NCBI GenBank assembly: GCA_902762295.1
Contig: CACWNX010000001.1
Coordinates: forward strand, 596,094-660,093
Origin: an uncultured Pseudomonadota bacterium
GTDB taxonomy: Bacteria > Pseudomonadota > Alphaproteobacteria > Rs-D84
Length of the DNA stretch: 64,000 nucleotides
Reading direction: 5' to 3'
In this document: positions 9,243-63,703 of the stretch, one piece after another
Layout of the letters: each line of letters starts with the position of its first letter
Position numbering within the stretch: position 1 is the stretch's first letter
The notes under the pieces: generated by a model
What the model was told of the DNA's origin: nothing
Seen by the model: only the letters and a program-made list of their open reading frames with translations
Database searches by the model: none
Made by a program: the position numbers and the translations under genes

Positions 9243-9887
9243 ATGAAGTTAAAGTATAAATTTAAAGACGAAGGTTTGCTGGATTTAGCATTGACCCAGA
9301 GTGGTGCGAATTGCGCGCATAATAATGAAAAACTGGAATTTGTGGGTGACCGCGTGCTGGGGTTATCGGTTGCAACATTGTTATACCAAATGTTTCCAAC
9401 CGAAACCGAGGGCGAATTGGCGCGCCGTTTTGCGGTATTGGTTTCAACCGATACATTGGCAACGATTGCAAATCGTATGGAACTGGACAAATCATTGCGA
9501 CATGGTCATGTGACGGGGGGGCGTAAACGGCATCTGATTGCCAACGCGATGGAGGCCGTTCTTGGTGCAATGTTTTTTGATTCGGGCTTTGATGCGACAC
9601 GCAATTTTATATGGGAAATATGGCGGCCGCTGGCGGCGGCGGAGGCCGAGGCCCCAAAAGATTCAAAAACTAAATTACAAGAATATGTGCAAAAACACGA
9701 CAATGGTGCATTGCCAGTATATAAGTTTTTAGAGCAAACCGGTGCGGCGCACGCGCCAATATTCACCGTTGATGTGACGGCAATGGGGCAAACCGCAACC
9801 GGGTCGGGAACATCAAAAAAGGCGGCGAGTATCGCGGCGGCGGCGGCACTGTTTAAAAAACTTGCAATTTTGCCGGCTGATAAGTAA
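9243..9887 (+). CDS. rnc: ribonuclease III
   Basis: RNase III signature ERLEFVGDRVLG, C-terminal dsRBD. Immediately follows lepB (classic lepB-rnc arrangement). Confidence 0.9.
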   Translation: MKLKYKFKDEGLLDLALTQSGANCAHNNEKLEFVGDRVLGLSVATLLYQMFPTETEGELARRFAVLVSTDTLATIANRMELDKSLRHGHVTGGRKRHLIANAMEAVLGAMFFDSGFDATRNFIWEIWRPLAAAEAEAPKDSKTKLQEYVQKHDNGALPVYKFLEQTGAAHAPIFTVDVTAMGQTATGSGTSKKAASIAAAAALFKKLAILPADK

Positions 9888-9921
9888 AATCGGGAAAAAT
9901 AGATAAAAAAAGGATTAAGAT

Positions 9922-10293
9922 ATGTTTTCAATTTTATTGGTGTTGTTGATTATTGTGGCGGTGTTTATGACTGGGTTGATTTTGCTCCAGAAATCCGAGG
10001 GCAGTGGCATGTCCGGTTCGGCGGCGGCATCTATGTTTGGTGGCGCGTTGACTGGGGCGGCGGCGGGTAATTTTTTGACCAAATTGACAACATGGCTGGC
10101 GATTATATTTTTTGTGCTGTGTGCGGCATTGGCATTGGTTTCATCAAAGTCTGATATTGCAAATGTAAATCAAAGTGGTCTGCGTGATGAACTGGCGGCG
10201 GACGAATTGGCAAATGAACCGACACCGGAAAATGCGACTGCACCGGCAACACCGGCGGAAAGTGAACCTGTGACGGTTGATGATAAAAAATAA
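9922..10293 (+). CDS. secG: preprotein translocase subunit SecG
   Basis: MFSILLVLLIIVAVFMTGLILLQKSEGSGMSGS...: typical SecG N-terminus and Gly-rich loop. Confidence 0.8.
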   Translation: MFSILLVLLIIVAVFMTGLILLQKSEGSGMSGSAAASMFGGALTGAAAGNFLTKLTTWLAIIFFVLCAALALVSSKSDIANVNQSGLRDELAADELANEPTPENATAPATPAESEPVTVDDKK

Positions 10294-10343
10294 GATTTTA
10301 CTTTTAAAAATGCCCCAGATGGGGCATTTTTAATGGTTTGTGT

Positions 10344-11480
10344 TTATTGTTTTTCTAAATTTCTTTTTAATTGCGCAATCTGTGCGGCCAGGTCTTTACC
10401 TTTGTTTAAAACAGACCCCGTTGCGCGTTTTTCGGATTCAGAAATAAATGTTTTAATTGTAGCACGTAAAACCGCATTTTTAGATTTTTCTGTTCCCAAT
10501 TCGCTTTCCAGTTCTGCAATTTGATCTTGCAAATCACGATTTTCACGGTTGCGTTCATCTAATGTCTTGCGAGCATTGGTTGCATATTGTTTGTTTTGTT
10601 CAGATTCTTGTTGCATTTTTTTTAATTCTTGTTCCGCCATTGACAATTCAATAGATGCCTGGGTTTCAAATTGTTGTACATAATCTCGCTGACCATTATT
10701 TAGTATGCTTTCTAAAGAATATTTTTGTTCTGTTTTTTTTGCCAGTGTTCGTATTGCGTTCATATCATCAGCGGATGCACCTTGACGTTGCATTATGCGC
10801 AGTATCTCCTCAACCAACCCCGGCAATGTCAGAACACCGGTATTGCGTATTCTTTCTATATTTGGTGCGTCTTTGTCCAATTCGTGTTTAAGTTCACTAT
10901 CAACCTTTACTGTTTGGTCATTAAACATCTGAATCAGTTCATACGGCGCATCACGATAATATTTGGATTGTTGATTATTTGCCAGTGCAACCGCGTAATT
11001 ATAAACATCATACGGTTTTGCCACCGGATTCATCGCAATCAACCGTTTAATATCAAATTTCAATTCCGGTGATGTTGCCCGCTCTTCAATTACTTTCAAT
11101 AATCGTAACGCATAGTGTTGGTTTTTAATTTTATTGTTTTGAGTCATATGTACAACTGCTAGATACGCATCGTTCAAATTATGTTGTTTATTATCATCGG
11201 CGTATAACACTGTAATAGTTTTGACGATATTCAAGAAATCTGCGGCCTCGGGGGAATCATTATAATCATAATCTTTACGCGCATTCCAATATTGTTTATA
11301 CAACTTTTCGCCGTTTGGACCAAAAGAAGGGGCACTCAGACTGGGCAATTCTGGATTCTGCGCAACCATATTGGGAAAGTAACCTATACGATCTTCGTGT
11401 TTATCTTGTGCGGTAAAAAATGTTTCCAAAAATTCATTAAGATTCATATATTTTGACTGGTTTTGCTTTGGTTCCAACAT
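10344..11480 (-). CDS. hypothetical 378-aa protein with C-terminal coiled coil (ORFan, effector-like)
   Basis: Long ORF. C-terminal 100 aa is heptad-rich (ELKKMQQESEQNKQYATNARKTLDERNRENRDLQDQIAELESELG...). No enzymatic motif recognised. Confidence 0.55.
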   Translation of the reverse strand: MLEPKQNQSKYMNLNEFLETFFTAQDKHEDRIGYFPNMVAQNPELPSLSAPSFGPNGEKLYKQYWNARKDYDYNDSPEAADFLNIVKTITVLYADDNKQHNLNDAYLAVVHMTQNNKIKNQHYALRLLKVIEERATSPELKFDIKRLIAMNPVAKPYDVYNYAVALANNQQSKYYRDAPYELIQMFNDQTVKVDSELKHELDKDAPNIERIRNTGVLTLPGLVEEILRIMQRQGASADDMNAIRTLAKKTEQKYSLESILNNGQRDYVQQFETQASIELSMAEQELKKMQQESEQNKQYATNARKTLDERNRENRDLQDQIAELESELGTEKSKNAVLRATIKTFISESEKRATGSVLNKGKDLAAQIAQLKRNLEKQ

Positions 11481-11537: not shown

Positions 11538-11757
11538 GTAAAAACACCGCACAAGGCGATGTTTTTATTTTTATCCTGGCGCACCCAGAAGGATTGTTCG
11601 CGTTGCTCACCACACGTAAGACTCGAACTTCATTTCATTCGTTCTCGTCAACTATCGTGTCGAACCAGGGTTCGCATCCCCGTTGTTCCAACGGTAAAAA
11701 CAAAAACACCGCACAAGGCGATGTTTTTATTTTTATCCTGGCGCACCCAGAAGGATT
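11538..11757. repeat. direct repeat (~56 bp, copies at 11538-11595 and 11700-11757) bracketing a 103-bp insert at the 3' end of tRNA-Arg(ACG)
   Basis: Identical strings aaaaacaccgcacaaggcgatgtttttatttttatcctggcgcacccagaaggatt at both positions. The repeat equals the tRNA 3' terminus (T-loop to CCA) plus its downstream flank. Confidence 0.85.
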
Positions 11758-11815
11758 CGAACCCTCAGTCTTCTGATCCGTAGTCAGACGCTTTATCCAG
11801 TTGAGCTATGGGTGC
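11739..11815 (-). tRNA. tRNA-Arg (anticodon ACG)
   Basis: Acceptor GCACCCA/TGGGTGC, anticodon loop CTACGGA, T-loop TTCGAAT, encoded CCA. Confidence 0.9.
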
Positions 11816-22457: not shown

Positions 22458-23567
22458 TTATATTGAATATTTTTCAAATACTTTGTTCAATTGATTATGA
22501 ACTTGAATTATCGTTGCGCACTTTGCCATATGTTTTACCGATGTCGCACCAATATATGTACAACACGATGCGATACCGCCTGTAATATCCTGCAAAATTT
22601 TATCTATTGCCCCTGTATATGGTATCAGTAATTCGCGTCCTTCGGATGTTTTATAGTCTGACATTCCGCCTGCAAATTTGTTGTTTGCATACTCTGATGA
22701 CATACCATAGTATGCCTTGAAATATTTTGTTTGAATACTCCGCACCCCATCAATAATTTCATTTGTTTCAAAATGTTTTTCAACTATATCGCCGGCGGCT
22801 TCGTCGGTCCCGGCGAACATTCCGCCCACCATAATAAAATCAGAATTCAGACAAAATGCCTTGCAAATATCGCCGGCATTCACAATTCCCCCATCGGCAC
22901 AAATATGTCCGCCGACCGAGTGCGCAATATCAGCACATTCAACAACCAGTGATACCATCGGTGTCCCGCAACCGGTCTGGCGACGGGTCAGACATGCCGA
23001 ACCACTGCCTATGCCACATTTTATAATATCTGCAAAGTCTAACAGTTTCAAACAAATGTCGCCACTGGCGATATTACCCGCCATGATAACTGCATCTGGA
23101 AATTCATGACGCACGCGTCGCAAAACATCCAATGCATTTGGAATATAAAAATTCGGCGCATCTATACATATATTGCGTGACGATGTCCATTTATATTTTG
23201 ATTCTAAATCTTTCAGTTTTTGAATTTCGGCATCTGCGTTTTTTAATCCAATCGTCAGAAATAAATTGTCCAGTGATACATTTGCCGTACGACAAGAATC
23301 CATAAATATCCCGATTTCATCAACCGTATAGTGCTTGTGCAGTGTCGCAAACATTCCGCGTGCTAATAATTTTTGCGCCACTGTAAAATTACCAACTGTT
23401 GCCATATTCGCGTTAAAAATGCCCAGACCAGTGCGCACCTGGCCGTGTTTGAATTTGAAAACGCGTTGTAAATCAACATCTTTGCGTGAATTCAGGTTTA
23501 TGCCCATTTTCGGACGAATTAAAATATCGGAATAGTCCAGAAAAACTTCGGACAAAATCTGTGTCAT
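22458..23567 (-). CDS. guaC: GMP reductase / IMPDH-family TIM-barrel oxidoreductase
   Basis: Catalytic-loop motif GIGSGSACLTRRQTGCG (compare GIGPGSICTTR of GuaC). Length 369 aa with no CBS pair, which favours GMP reductase over IMPDH. Confidence 0.7.
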   Translation of the reverse strand: MTQILSEVFLDYSDILIRPKMGINLNSRKDVDLQRVFKFKHGQVRTGLGIFNANMATVGNFTVAQKLLARGMFATLHKHYTVDEIGIFMDSCRTANVSLDNLFLTIGLKNADAEIQKLKDLESKYKWTSSRNICIDAPNFYIPNALDVLRRVRHEFPDAVIMAGNIASGDICLKLLDFADIIKCGIGSGSACLTRRQTGCGTPMVSLVVECADIAHSVGGHICADGGIVNAGDICKAFCLNSDFIMVGGMFAGTDEAAGDIVEKHFETNEIIDGVRSIQTKYFKAYYGMSSEYANNKFAGGMSDYKTSEGRELLIPYTGAIDKILQDITGGIASCCTYIGATSVKHMAKCATIIQVHNQLNKVFEKYSI

Positions 23568-23624
23568 AATTTATCCCTTTTGTCGGTGGGATTATAGACG
23601 ATAACACCGTAATCTTGCAAGAAA

Positions 23625-23885
23625 TTTCAAAGTACTTCGGCAACAAAAGTTGCCTCGCCTCGCAACCCTTCGGGTTCTCGCCCCTTTGCCGACAAAATTA
23701 AAAACCGACCTAACGGACGGTTTTAAAATTTTGGTGCGAGCAAAGTACTTCGGTGGCATACGCCACCTCGCCTCGCAACCCTTCGGGTTCTCGCCCCTTT
23801 GCCGACAAAATTAAAAACCGACCTAACGCCCTTTGCCGACAAAATTAAAAACCGACCTAACGGACGGTTTTAAAATTTTGGTGCG
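23625..23885. repeat. tandem ~120/140-bp repeat units ending in duplicated tRNA-Gly 3' terminus, between guaC start and tRNA-Gly
   Basis: Unit caaagtacttcgg...ctcgcctcgcaacccttcgggttctcgcccctttgccgacaaaattaaaaaccgacctaacggacggttttaaaattttggtgcgagcaaag occurs twice (23625-23744 and 23745-23885). The second unit has an extra internal 34-bp duplication. The last 25 bp equal the tRNA-Gly 3' end plus flank. Confidence 0.85.
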
Positions 23886-23955
23886 AGCAAAGGGGCTCGA
23901 ACCCTCGACCTCAACCTTGGCAAGGTTGCGCTCTAGCCAACTGAGCTACGCTCGC
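23879..23955 (-). tRNA. tRNA-Gly (anticodon GCC)
   Basis: Acceptor GCGAGCG/TGCTCGC, anticodon loop TTGCCAA, T-loop TTCGAGC, encoded CCA. Confidence 0.9.
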
Positions 23956-24188
23956 ATTGCGTGGTGTATTCTTACATACAAAAATTCATTTTGCAAGTAA
24001 AAAATTGCCGGCGGTTTAGGCGAAAGTGTGCGGGCATCTATTTTCCTTGTGTTTAATGCAAAAATTATGTATCATTCGGCGTAGATGCCCCGCAGTCACG
24101 GATTCACTACGAATAGAGCATGGTGCTTTATTGGCAATGGATTCCGGTGATTGCGGAAATGTTTTGTTAAAAAAAAGGATTATTATAA

Positions 24189-35473: not shown

Positions 35474-35676
35474 AAAATCAAAACCGACCTTGTGTCGGTT
35501 TTTGTTTTTTGATTGGGAAAACAAGACGAGAACCCGTGGGTTCGACACGATAGTTGGTGAAAACAAGCCTTGGCGCAGTTTGAACCTTACGAGTGGAAGG
35601 GTCCCAACACGCAGTGTTGGGATGTGCAATCCCTGTGGCCCCACCAAAAATCAAAACCGACCTTGTGTCGGTTTTT
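35458..35676. repeat. direct repeat (46 bp, copies at 35458-35503 and 35631-35676) bracketing a ~125-bp insert downstream of tRNA-Lys
   Basis: ccctgtggccccaccaaaaatcaaaaccgaccttgtgtcggttttt twice: the tRNA 3' terminus plus its terminator hairpin. The second copy is preceded by gggtcc, which matches the tRNA variable loop. Confidence 0.85.
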
Positions 35677-51513: not shown

Positions 51514-51640
51514 TTTATTACCTTTTTGTTCCTGTTATGTTTCATATATTATATTCCGGGTTTCTGGTGCCAGGCACCCGGCGGCCCCGCAAAAAAGCTG
51601 AACAGATATAATCAACAATCGCCAATTATATCAAACCTAA

Positions 51641-53669
<2,029 letters not shown>

Positions 53670-55474: not shown

Positions 55475-55663
55475 TGGCGCACCCGGCGCGATTCCCTCGG
55501 GCAAATGTCCTGCGGGGCATTCGTTAGCGCTTGAACTTCGTTTTACTCGTTCTCGCTTACTCATTGTCGAACGCGACGCGTTCAAATCGCGGGGCGCACA
55601 GCAATAAATTCAAATCATCATTGCGGGATAATTTAAATTTATTGGCGCACCCGGCGCGATTCG
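55475..55663. repeat. 20-bp duplication of the tRNA-Arg(CCG) 3' terminus (55475-55494 and 55644-55663) bracketing a ~149-bp insert
   Basis: tggcgcacccggcgcgattc occurs twice. The insert contains a T-arm-like gcgttcaaatcgcggggcgca and a tcgttctcg...gtcgaac segment resembling the Arg(ACG) and Lys inserts. Confidence 0.8.
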
Positions 55664-55719
55664 AACGCGCAATCCCCGCCTTCGGAGGGCGGTGCTCTAT
55701 CCAGTTAAGCCACGGGTGC
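55644..55719 (-). tRNA. tRNA-Arg (anticodon CCG)
   Basis: Acceptor GCACCCG/CGGGTGC, anticodon loop CTCCGAA, T-loop TTCGAAT, encoded CCA. Confidence 0.9.
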
Positions 55720-61618: not shown

Positions 61619-61865
61619 AATCAAAAAATCCGCGATTGCGGATTTTTAACATTTTAATCTGGCGGAGATAGGTTTCTGTCCTTGATAAACAATAATCAAA
61701 ATCTATAAAAATCTTGTTCCGGCGATTTTTATGATTTTTCTAATTGTTCATCTGCGTATTGTGCGCTGCGTTCTGTGGGACTCGCACACATCCCCCTATC
61801 TCCTTGGTTAAAATCAAAAAATCCGCGATTGCGGATTTTTAACATTTTAATCTGGCGGAGATAGG
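61617..61865. repeat. 56-bp direct repeat (61617-61672 and 61810-61865) bracketing a 137-bp insert downstream of tRNA-Ser
   Basis: aaaatcaaaaaatccgcgattgcggatttttaacattttaatctggcggagatagg twice: the tRNA 3' end plus its terminator hairpin. The insert ends in ccccctatctcc, an inverted copy of the tRNA acceptor/T-stem. Confidence 0.85.
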
Positions 61866-61943
61866 GGGATTCGAACCCTCGATACAGTTTCCTGTATACG
61901 CGATTTCGAGTCGCGCGCATTCAACCAGCTCTGCCATATCTCC
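61853..61943 (-). tRNA. tRNA-Ser (anticodon CGA), long variable arm
   Basis: GGAGATA acceptor, anticodon loop CTCGAAA, extended variable arm, T-loop TTCGAAT, encoded CCA. Confidence 0.9.
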
Positions 61944-63447: not shown

Positions 63448-63643
63448 GCTTTTTTATAATGGGACGGATGACCGGATTGTTTCACCAATATTGTCCCATT
63501 TGCTTTCGCAAACCGGCGCACTTCCGTTCGCCTTGGGTCAATATTTCGAACCGGCTGCTTCGCCGGTTCAAACCCGAACATTCACGATTATAAAAAATCG
63601 CCCCAAATGGGACGCTTTTTTATAATGGGGCGGATGACCGGAT
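63448..63643. repeat. ~31-bp duplication of the tRNA-His 3' end plus flank (63448-63478 and 63613-63643) bracketing a ~134-bp insert
   Basis: gcttttttataatggg(a/g)cggatgaccggatt twice. The insert contains the tRNA-like fragment cagccggttcgaaatattgacc (compare the His T-arm gccggttcgaatccggtc). Confidence 0.8.
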
Positions 63644-63703
63644 TCGAACCGGCGACATTCGGTACCACAAACCGACGCTCTAACCAGCTGAGCTACATCC
63701 GCC
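63626..63703 (-). tRNA. tRNA-His (anticodon GTG) with encoded G-1
   Basis: Extra 5' G pairing with C73 (the His identity element). Anticodon loop TTGTGGT. T-loop TTCGAAT. Encoded CCA. Confidence 0.85.

Follow-up and report, generated by a model that had tools for sequence, protein, structure and literature searches.

tRNA-linked repeats (TLRs) have gone unexplained in the tRNA and rRNA operons of Escherichia coli for more than 40 years and are usually seen as an enterobacterial curiosity. First described in 1978, at tyrT (Egan & Landy 1978; Rudd 1999), and also called RtT, they number 22 at ten loci in E. coli (PMC8144298). A TLR is defined by a 3′ end that is identical to the terminal 18–19 bp of the upstream tRNA (PMC8144298). 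No function has been assigned to these repeats, except that three members in rRNA operons are read-through products between two terminators (PMC8144298). The small RNAs rrA, rrB and rrF, which lie between the dual rrn terminators of E. coli, are TLR members that carry at their 3′ end a copy of the final 18 nt of the stable RNA before them, and RNase E cleavage directed by this copy has been proposed (PMC8144298). Here we describe a tandem array behind tRNA-Gly(GCC) in a 64-kb stretch of contig CACWNX010000001.1 (‘the window’), from an uncultured gut alphaproteobacterium, that is built on the same plan. On balance, the array is probably a pair of co-transcribed, tRNA-mimicking TLR trailer modules that are gained and lost through unequal recombination. 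The sequences themselves show how the modules are built, that they recur, that their plan is akin to that of the E. coli TLRs, and that they covary, persist and differ in copy number.

The array is read here in the orientation of tRNA-Gly (minus strand), with the parts of each module ordered 5′ to 3′ from the tRNA; feature coordinates are collected in Table 1. The original prediction, made from the sequence alone, had placed a tandem array against the 3′ end of tRNA-Gly, and this is borne out by two direct repeats. D1 (64 nt, 23682-23745 versus 23829-23892, offset 147 bp) is 100% identical and holds the tRNA 3′ end plus terminator, and D2 (88 nt, 23628-23715 versus 23741-23828, offset 113 bp) is 91% identical. 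A 32-nt core and a 39-nt terminator segment likewise occur twice each in the window and in none of 100 shuffles. The predicted limits, 23625-23744 and 23745-23885, were right in giving two units, but the natural register (23878..23732 and 23731..23628) lies about 7–13 nt away from them.

The proximal unit opens with the terminator hairpin T, followed by a 5′ arm GCAAAG (23802-23797) and the core GGGGCGAGAACCCGAAGGGTTGCGAGGCGAG. It continues through hairpin B (GGTGGC 23767-23762, GCCACC 23757-23752) and GAAGTA, and ends in a 3′ arm CTTTGCTCGCACCA (23745-23732) equal to the tRNA-Gly 3′ end. The distal unit has T, the 5′ arm GCAAAG (23689-23684) and the same core, and then hairpin A (GGCAAC 23654-23649, GTTGCC 23644-23639), GAAGTA and CTTTG (23632-23628). 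Of the copied tRNA 3′ end only these 5 nt are left, and the promoter of a gene for a guaC-like protein follows; a truncated unit of this distal type also stands 5′ of the guaC-like gene in four related loci (L001, L002, L004 and L017). Thus the tRNA 3′ terminus, thought to occur three times, occurs only twice (as GCTCGCACCA, or as the 14-nt CTTTGCTCGCACCA, at 23879 and 23732), the third instance being CTTTG alone. The description as two tandem units holds for the shared flanks, which are identical. It fails for the hairpins, so the units are not plain copies of each other: A and B differ at 8-9 of 16 positions, and both pair (GGTGGC-GTAT-GCCACC versus GGCAAC-TTTT-GTTGCC).

Three further traits complete the anatomy. 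A segment GCAAAGGGGCGAGAACCC is complementary at 16 of 18 positions to GGGTTCGAGCCCCTTTGC of the tRNA-Gly itself. The 34-bp duplication is confined to the proximal unit, where it takes in everything from the terminator's 3′ half to GGCAAAGGG inclusive; its proposed origin as a recent local event agrees with the single copy in the sister contigs L001 and L017. The array is, as had been argued, not CRISPR-like: its units are contiguous, 113–147 bp long and without spacers, versus the short repeats (about 28–37 bp) and unique spacers of CRISPR arrays. Small open reading frames (ORFs) within the array (55, 54 and 39 aa) were considered and rejected. The lengths of homologous units vary by 1, 2, 7 and 8 nt, none a multiple of three, and therefore no ORF is conserved.

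Modules of this kind are not restricted to tRNA-Gly. For each of the nine tRNAs in the window, the DNA behind it was examined for a second copy of the tRNA tail, and six have one: the last 13–19 nt recur 147–193 bp downstream on the same strand, and in most of these six modules the tRNA's own terminator recurs after the tail copy. The five non-Gly modules are each 160–190 nt long, and no module follows the Ala-GGC, Ala-TGC and Met tRNAs of the window. Direct repeats of 47–57 nt bracket the Lys, Arg-ACG and Ser modules, and of 64 nt the Gly module. In five of the six modules the interior matches the 3′ half of its own tRNA in inverted orientation (0–5 of 2000 shuffles do as well). The Lys match is not significant by the same shuffle test, which finds no inverted match for the three module-free tRNAs. 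In the His, Arg-CCG and Lys modules the forward 5′ strand of the T-stem and TTCGA are then present, and the 3′ arm resumes at ATCC. These three modules and, as judged by eye, Arg-ACG thereby hold a pseudo 3′ half that is split precisely at T-loop positions 58/59 by an insert of 65–90 nt.

Folded as one piece, the tRNA 3′ half, the terminator and the 5′ arm give one hairpin (−45 to −55 kcal/mol; z = −7 to −9). They make up a long and almost perfect palindrome with the terminator loop at its centre (61790-61882, 11668-11768, 55578-55672 and 63560-63655, all on the minus strand, and 2808-2898 of L001). If transcribed, the 5′ arm of a module could compete with folding of the tRNA. MAFFT alignment of the six module types gave no usable result, and the anatomy was resolved module by module. 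A search with Rfam models, over the whole window at gathering score and in three sub-regions by E-value, returned tRNAs and tmRNA only and no family on the modules. A decayed tandem copy of a whole tRNA gene was rejected as an explanation, as the modules have no similarity to the D-arm or anticodon arm. Forward alignment of module and tRNA recovers only the T-stem 5′ strand and TTCGA, with scores that are not significant for most modules.

One smaller sequence feature was read by eye within the inverted arms. Where the complement of the T-loop would read TCGAA, the Tyr units of E. coli (ATGAGAA) and the Lys (ACGAGAA) and Gly (GCGAGAA) modules of the window have GAGAA, at 23780-23795 and 35520-35535 in the window and at about 1165-1185 in L005. 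With this change, G57 and A58 in the forward copy would face tandem G-A/A-G. A motif TTCGAC-N9-10-RYGARAAC occurs in three window modules. Its looser form, TTCGAC-N9-10-RYGARARM, takes in two units of E. coli besides these modules; it was defined post hoc and is a lead only.

The same anatomy is found in E. coli K-12, where the tyrT/tyrV and serV-argVYZQ loci were fetched for comparison. The tyrT unit reads GGGGAAGGATGAGAAGCTTCGA-cc-AAGGTTCGA-(68 nt, with hairpin GTTGCC/GGCAAC)-ATCCTTCCCCCACCACCA. Its plan is an inverted tRNA-Tyr 3′ half, a forward T-stem with TTCGA, an insert at 58/59 and an 18-nt tRNA end. In the TLRs behind argV, argZ and argQ the core is shared with the Tyr units, and the arm pair that encloses it, GGGAGGAT/ATCCTCCC, is specific to the tRNA. 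Both the Tyr and the Arg TLRs fold with their arms paired, as in the outer helix of the Rfam RtT consensus.

Homologues of the Gly module were sought in metagenome contigs and in GTDB genomes, by one scan each with exact core patterns of 24 and 20 nt. Twenty-five relevant loci were returned, the named ones from Candidatus Enterousia and uncultured Alphaproteobacteria of rumen and gut. In every one of these the module follows tRNA-Gly(GCC), regardless of the next gene. A single Spirochaetales match of the 20-nt core (L024 2980-2999), with no tRNA-Gly and no module nearby, is a chance match; in 596 Gb a 20-mer would be expected to hit about that often. Outside the search pattern, too, the Gly core is conserved among genomes with unrelated flanks. 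Terminators vary freely among lineages and are mostly alike within one array (an exception is L017, with T and T_alt). In some lineages there is no terminator between tRNA-Gly and module, and the sole terminator stands after the module, an arrangement that would argue for co-transcription of the two. The modules are retained in every lineage found, despite flanking direct repeats of 50–64 bp that favour deletion.

Covariation was assessed in an alignment of 22 distinct Gly units from different genomes, and it backs the hairpin-capable segments noticed in the original prediction. Across the arm pair and the hairpin, 98.7% of cells pair versus 89.7% in shuffles, a level that 0 of 500 shuffles reach, and slid controls give 29–51%. 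Double changes occur in five of the six hairpin pairs. An A-U pair of the arms becomes U-A exactly where the T-stem of the tRNA went from GAGGG/CCCTT to GTGGG/CCCAT, and the three G-U cells are consistent with an RNA transcribed in the tRNA's direction. RNAalifold draws a different helix, a pseudo-acceptor stem in which GCGAG repeats pair with CTCGC of the 3′ arm. This helix is at best compatible with the alignment: T68→C is one-sided (G-U to G-C), and no two-sided change occurs. The 5′-arm:3′-arm helix is preferred because one of its pairs covaries.

The cores themselves have moved between tRNAs. Orthologous tRNA-Arg(ACG) loci of related genomes, fetched through the neighbouring protein, do not have the Arg core of the window; they carry the core of the window's tRNA-Ser module (type-2), ~90% identical over the common part (L039 557-745, L040 904-1100 and L041 326-440, against 61660-61852 of the window). 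The protein next to these tRNA-Arg loci is only 54–57% identical. The accompanying 5′ arm, GCGCACCCAGAAGGAT, is an exact or near-exact reverse complement of the 3′ end of tRNA-Arg, over 16 nt in the best case (L039 and L040) and over a shorter length in L041, and three further loci (L042, L038 and L043) are mosaics of two core types. As judged from these loci, the clade has at least three core types, combined with arms that match whichever tRNA precedes. Cores that are swapped while arms are re-specified can hardly come from point mutation alone and point to a templated process.

Copy number is variable as well, as emerged from the comparison of related genomes that the original prediction had called for. 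A single Gly unit is present in L001 (a 549-kb contig in which the locus is 147 bp shorter and the guaC-like protein is the same) and in many others. Two-unit arrays occur in the window and in L006, L018, L022, L023 and L028, from other assemblies and lineages, and L007 has one unit plus a stub. L002 and L003, contigs of other samples that encode an identical guaC-like protein, begin inside the repeated unit (at 1-20 in the tRNA 3′ copy and at 1-12 in the core, respectively), the pattern expected where a multi-copy unit breaks short-read assembly. No other fetched locus yielded a hairpin-B unit that carries the 34-bp duplication.

In several genomes cargo stands between or beside the units. 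In L017, from the same species, two units with different terminators are split by a 0.9-kb segment (reverse strand, about 9545-10464) with a single gene encoding Zn-ribbon and PNPOx (pyridoxamine-phosphate-oxidase) domains. The segment ends in ...GCGTT|CCCCTTTGCTCGCACCA, a 17-nt copy of the tRNA-Gly 3′ end. L004 (1-320) has other cargo that ends at a similar junction, and in L015 (580-1500), from a related species, two cargo segments and one unit are stacked with a junction of the same kind. The common form of these cargo ends in L017, L015 and L004 is ...GC(G/A)TT plus the 17-nt tRNA-Gly 3′ copy. Beside the Arg-ACG modules, a small ORF of 103–122 aa with its own promoter (L038 157-525, L043 198-566, L039 811-1122) had no Pfam match in these three loci; in L043 it splits a terminator, GAAATTCAAAAC | ... 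| CCGGCCGTTTGGTCGG. In L022 (reverse, second unit), L031 (about 990) and L020 (about 160) the last Gly unit is partial and breaks off within or at the variable hairpin, with the ends GGTGGCAT|ATATTGG, GATGGCAC|TTG and GCGAGG|TACACGG. The last element of other arrays is the terminator, GGGGCG or CCCGAAG.

Table 1. Features of the tRNA-Gly array, its surroundings and the other tRNA-linked modules of the window.
Feature	Position	Strand	Basis or remark
tRNA-Gly (anticodon GCC), encoded CCA	23955..23879	-	ARAGORN; Rfam tRNA model, 65.9 bits
Candidate tRNA-Gly promoter	23968..23996	-	Read from sequence; -35 TTGCAA 23996-23991, extended -10 TGTAAGAAT ending 23968
Terminator hairpin T, copy 1, AAAACCGTCCGTTAGGTCGGTTTTT	23847..23871	-	Sequence; RNAfold -11.6 kcal/mol for the T segment
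Terminator hairpin T, copy 2	23700..23724	-	Identical to copy 1; inside the 64-nt 100% repeat D1
34-bp tandem duplication	23795..23862	-	TRF; 2.0 copies, 100% identical
Proximal unit (147 bp)	23732..23878	-	Adjoins the tRNA-Gly CCA directly
Distal unit	23628..23731	-	Direct repeats and sequence reading
Sigma-70-like promoter, TTGCAA-18-TATAAT	23620..23591	-	Scan, 10/12 matches; directly after the array
IMPDH/GMP-reductase-family (guaC-like) gene	23567..22458	-	Pfam PF00478, E = 1e-49
Arg-ACG module	11577-11738	-	Tail copy 18 nt, 11577-11594
Gly module(s)	23628..23878	-	Tail copy 14 nt; two units
Lys module	35474-35646	+	Tail copy 17 nt, 35630-35646
Arg-CCG module	55475-55642	-	Tail copy 19 nt, 55475-55493
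Ser module	61660-61852	-	Tail copy 13 nt, 61660-61672
His module	63460-63625	-	Tail copy 18 nt, one mismatch, 63460-63477
Permuted two-piece tmRNA gene, alphaproteobacterial type	51553-51895	-	169.8 bits; in keeping with the alphaproteobacterial relatives

Two of these signals were missed by the consensus scan. It passed over copy 1 of T because its stem holds a T-T mismatch. It also did not call the site at 23968..23996, and we infer the tRNA-Gly promoter from its layout, CTTGCA-N17-TGnnAnAAT, which also precedes tRNA-Gly in unrelated flanks (L006-L009, L013 and others).

A module consists of the tRNA terminator, an inverted T-stem/acceptor 5′ arm, a core with a hairpin of free sequence, a 14–19-nt tRNA tail with CCA, and the terminator again. 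In the working that we propose, polymerase that passes a leaky first terminator would transcribe the module. The helix of 5′ arm and 3′ arm would then imitate the stacked T-stem and acceptor stem, leaving a single-stranded ...NCCA tail, and the tRNA 3′-maturation enzymes may cut after the copied end, in the way they cut after the tRNA, and so free a small structured RNA. The 5′ arm is also able to base-pair with the 3′ half of the tRNA itself, on the other side of the terminator. The direct-inverted-direct layout would most likely arise by palindrome-templated (snap-back) copying at the terminator hairpin. Units would be gained and lost by unequal recombination between the 64-bp identical repeats of tRNA 3′ end and terminator, which would leave two units in this strain and one in its sister strain.

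Several points weigh against this interpretation. We infer the transcription and processing of the modules, and any activity of their RNA, from DNA sequence. Taken alone, two of the six modules (Arg-ACG and Lys) fold no better than shuffles. Core columns 14-36 of the Gly alignment are invariant partly because the homologues were found by exact 20–24-mer searches, and palindrome-templated mutation of DNA could also yield covariation of hairpin and arms without selection on an RNA. The identical flanks and different hairpins of the two window units are unexplained by a simple recent duplication and require recombination with another allele or the import of a unit. The Rfam RtT model (RF00391), finally, has no match at gathering score (45 bits) in the whole window or at E ≤ 10 in the Gly and Arg-ACG regions, a result that is weak evidence either way. 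The model scores 133–137 bits on the E. coli tyrT units and stays below threshold on the TLRs behind argV, argZ and argQ (L033, K-12 2816500-2819500), all of which end in an 18-nt tRNA-Arg tail. Since it misses Arg TLRs of E. coli itself, the model is narrower than the TLR class, and its failure to match is compatible with kinship. As far as their sequence goes, the window modules are without close homology to RtT, and we class them as TLR-like by architecture rather than as RtT members.

Could the modules instead be integration modules or attachment-site relics? They would have been inserted at tRNA 3′ ends by site-specific recombination, the array being a stack with its newest member nearest the tRNA and the copied 3′ ends serving as further attachment sites. 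We regard this as unlikely. The one-gene segment of L017 with its terminal 17-nt tRNA copy, and the cargo of L004 and L015 with junctions of the same type, would suit such a history. So would unlike terminators (L017) or hairpins (window) inside one array, which suggest separate origins, and the combination of one core with the arms of different tRNAs, as in the window's Ser core behind Arg-ACG in L039-L041. Identity to the tRNA also begins in the T-loop at 58/59, a classic crossover sublocation for tRNA-targeting integrases. Yet no integrase or recombinase gene was seen in or beside any module or cargo, be it near the six window modules or in the segments between the Gly modules of L015 and L017, and a unit of 113–147 bp is too small to encode a recombinase. 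The core has no match in viral contigs, and a phage attP reading was rejected. Cargo junctions differ, falling after T in L017 and inside a terminator in L038 and L043. The Arg-ACG module is identical in sister strains. No empty site was found for any module.

Distinctly unlikely, in our estimate, is a functionless by-product of replication error, in which snap-back or template switching at the terminator hairpin creates modules of the tandem-inversion-duplication type and unequal crossing-over with palindrome-templated correction keeps the copies alike. The near-perfect palindrome of tRNA 3′ half, terminator and 5′ arm (z = −7 to −9) speaks for it, as do a second junction that is palindromic too (for example TTTGAACCGGC gaagca GCCGGTTCGAA in His) and the many different points at which arrays end. 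Terminators that are the same within a genome and free between lineages indicate concerted evolution. Errors of this sort leave the shared non-tRNA cores unexplained (the Gly core, the ~90% identical type-2 core and the motif TTCGAC-N9-10-RYGARAAC). They also do not account for modules that are kept in all lineages in the face of direct repeats that favour their loss, or for the same anatomy in E. coli. An assembly artefact, with the repeat mis-expanded or strain variants with hairpins A and B joined via the 64-bp repeat, is very improbable as the source of the two-unit array. The source is apparently a metagenome assembly, none of the other fetched loci gave a unit with both hairpin B and the 34-bp duplication, and assemblers evidently struggle at a locus where L002 and L003 break exactly within the unit. 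Those breaks would equally follow from a real multi-copy unit, assemblers usually collapse rather than expand repeats, and two-unit arrays are found independently in L006, L018, L022, L023 and L028 and in E. coli K-12. We give hardly any credence to the array as a cis-regulatory leader of the guaC-like gene, an effect on expression that the original prediction had raised because of position: the gene starts 60 bp 3′ of the array on the same strand. The comparative data contradict it. Across the 25 loci the module goes with tRNA-Gly whatever gene follows (lysS and others), a guaC orthologue in L015 has no module or core upstream, every unit starts with a terminator, and a good sigma-70-like promoter lies between array and gene.

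In a wider frame, what is new here is the TLR plan behind most tRNAs in the window of a distant gut alphaproteobacterium, with arms that track the tRNA; the kind of element itself was already known. The TLR architecture in a distant host, the tracking of the arms and covariation of the hairpin, and the swapping of cores together suggest that a general mechanism, and not chance, maintains or regenerates the modules. A bolder and doubtful extension is that TLRs form a cross-phylum class of modular elements (in Gamma- and Alphaproteobacteria), in which a templated process joins a core to inverted and direct copies of the tRNA 3′ half split at 58/59, and modules and occasional cargo stack like cassettes. 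If true, tRNA trailers would be an unrecognised platform for DNA insertion or for tRNA-mimicking RNAs. The loci assembled here offer a comparative dataset for choosing among RNAs that mimic the acceptor/T-arm, by-products of palindrome copying and landing modules for foreign DNA. There are also practical consequences: a strain-variable repeat at this locus breaks short-read assemblies, and duplicated tRNA-adjacent 3′ ends are not automatically prophage attachment (att) sites.

Three known systems can be set beside the E. coli TLRs behind tRNA genes. The duplicated tRNA 3′ end recalls the attL and attR sites of integrative elements in tRNA genes, and real cargo lies between the copies in L017 and L015. 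In the window, by contrast, the copies are 147 bp apart, with no integrase, cargo or conserved ORF between them, and the units contain a structured core and an inverted tRNA half that are not seen in att scars. Tandem inversion duplications and quasipalindrome template-switch products have a direct-inverted-direct order with junctions on pre-existing hairpins, and they are transient, large and unselected. The window modules share this order and have their junctions at hairpins (the terminator and the T-arm), but they are only about 100–190 bp long, are conserved across genera and have non-tRNA cores. Like rrA, rrB and rrF, they lie between two terminators and copy at their 3′ end the upstream stable RNA, though those small RNAs follow 5S rRNA and bind Hfq and CsrA via GGA motifs. 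Nothing like this was seen in the modules, for which no search aimed at it was made.

The closest resemblance is to the tRNA-borne TLRs of E. coli. The hosts are far apart, the cores here are different and of at least three types, the modules usually have a copy of the rho-independent terminator of their tRNA on either side, and cargo genes stand between units in some strains. The 3′ end that equals the tRNA 3′ end extends over 18–19 bp in E. coli, against 14 bp in Gly and 13–19 bp in the other five modules of the window; the Gly (14) and Ser (13) tail copies are thus shorter than those of E. coli, and the distal Gly unit retains 5 nt. In both hosts the units lie directly behind the tRNA on the same strand (here tRNA-Gly and five other tRNAs) and occupy several loci per genome, some in tandem, with 3-4 units at tyrT and 1-2 here. 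In both, identity to the tRNA begins at ATCC of the T-loop, and a closing 5′ arm and a stable inner hairpin are present. The pairing of this 5′ arm with the tRNA-derived 3′ arm, the outer helix of the Rfam RtT consensus, is found here as it is in E. coli.

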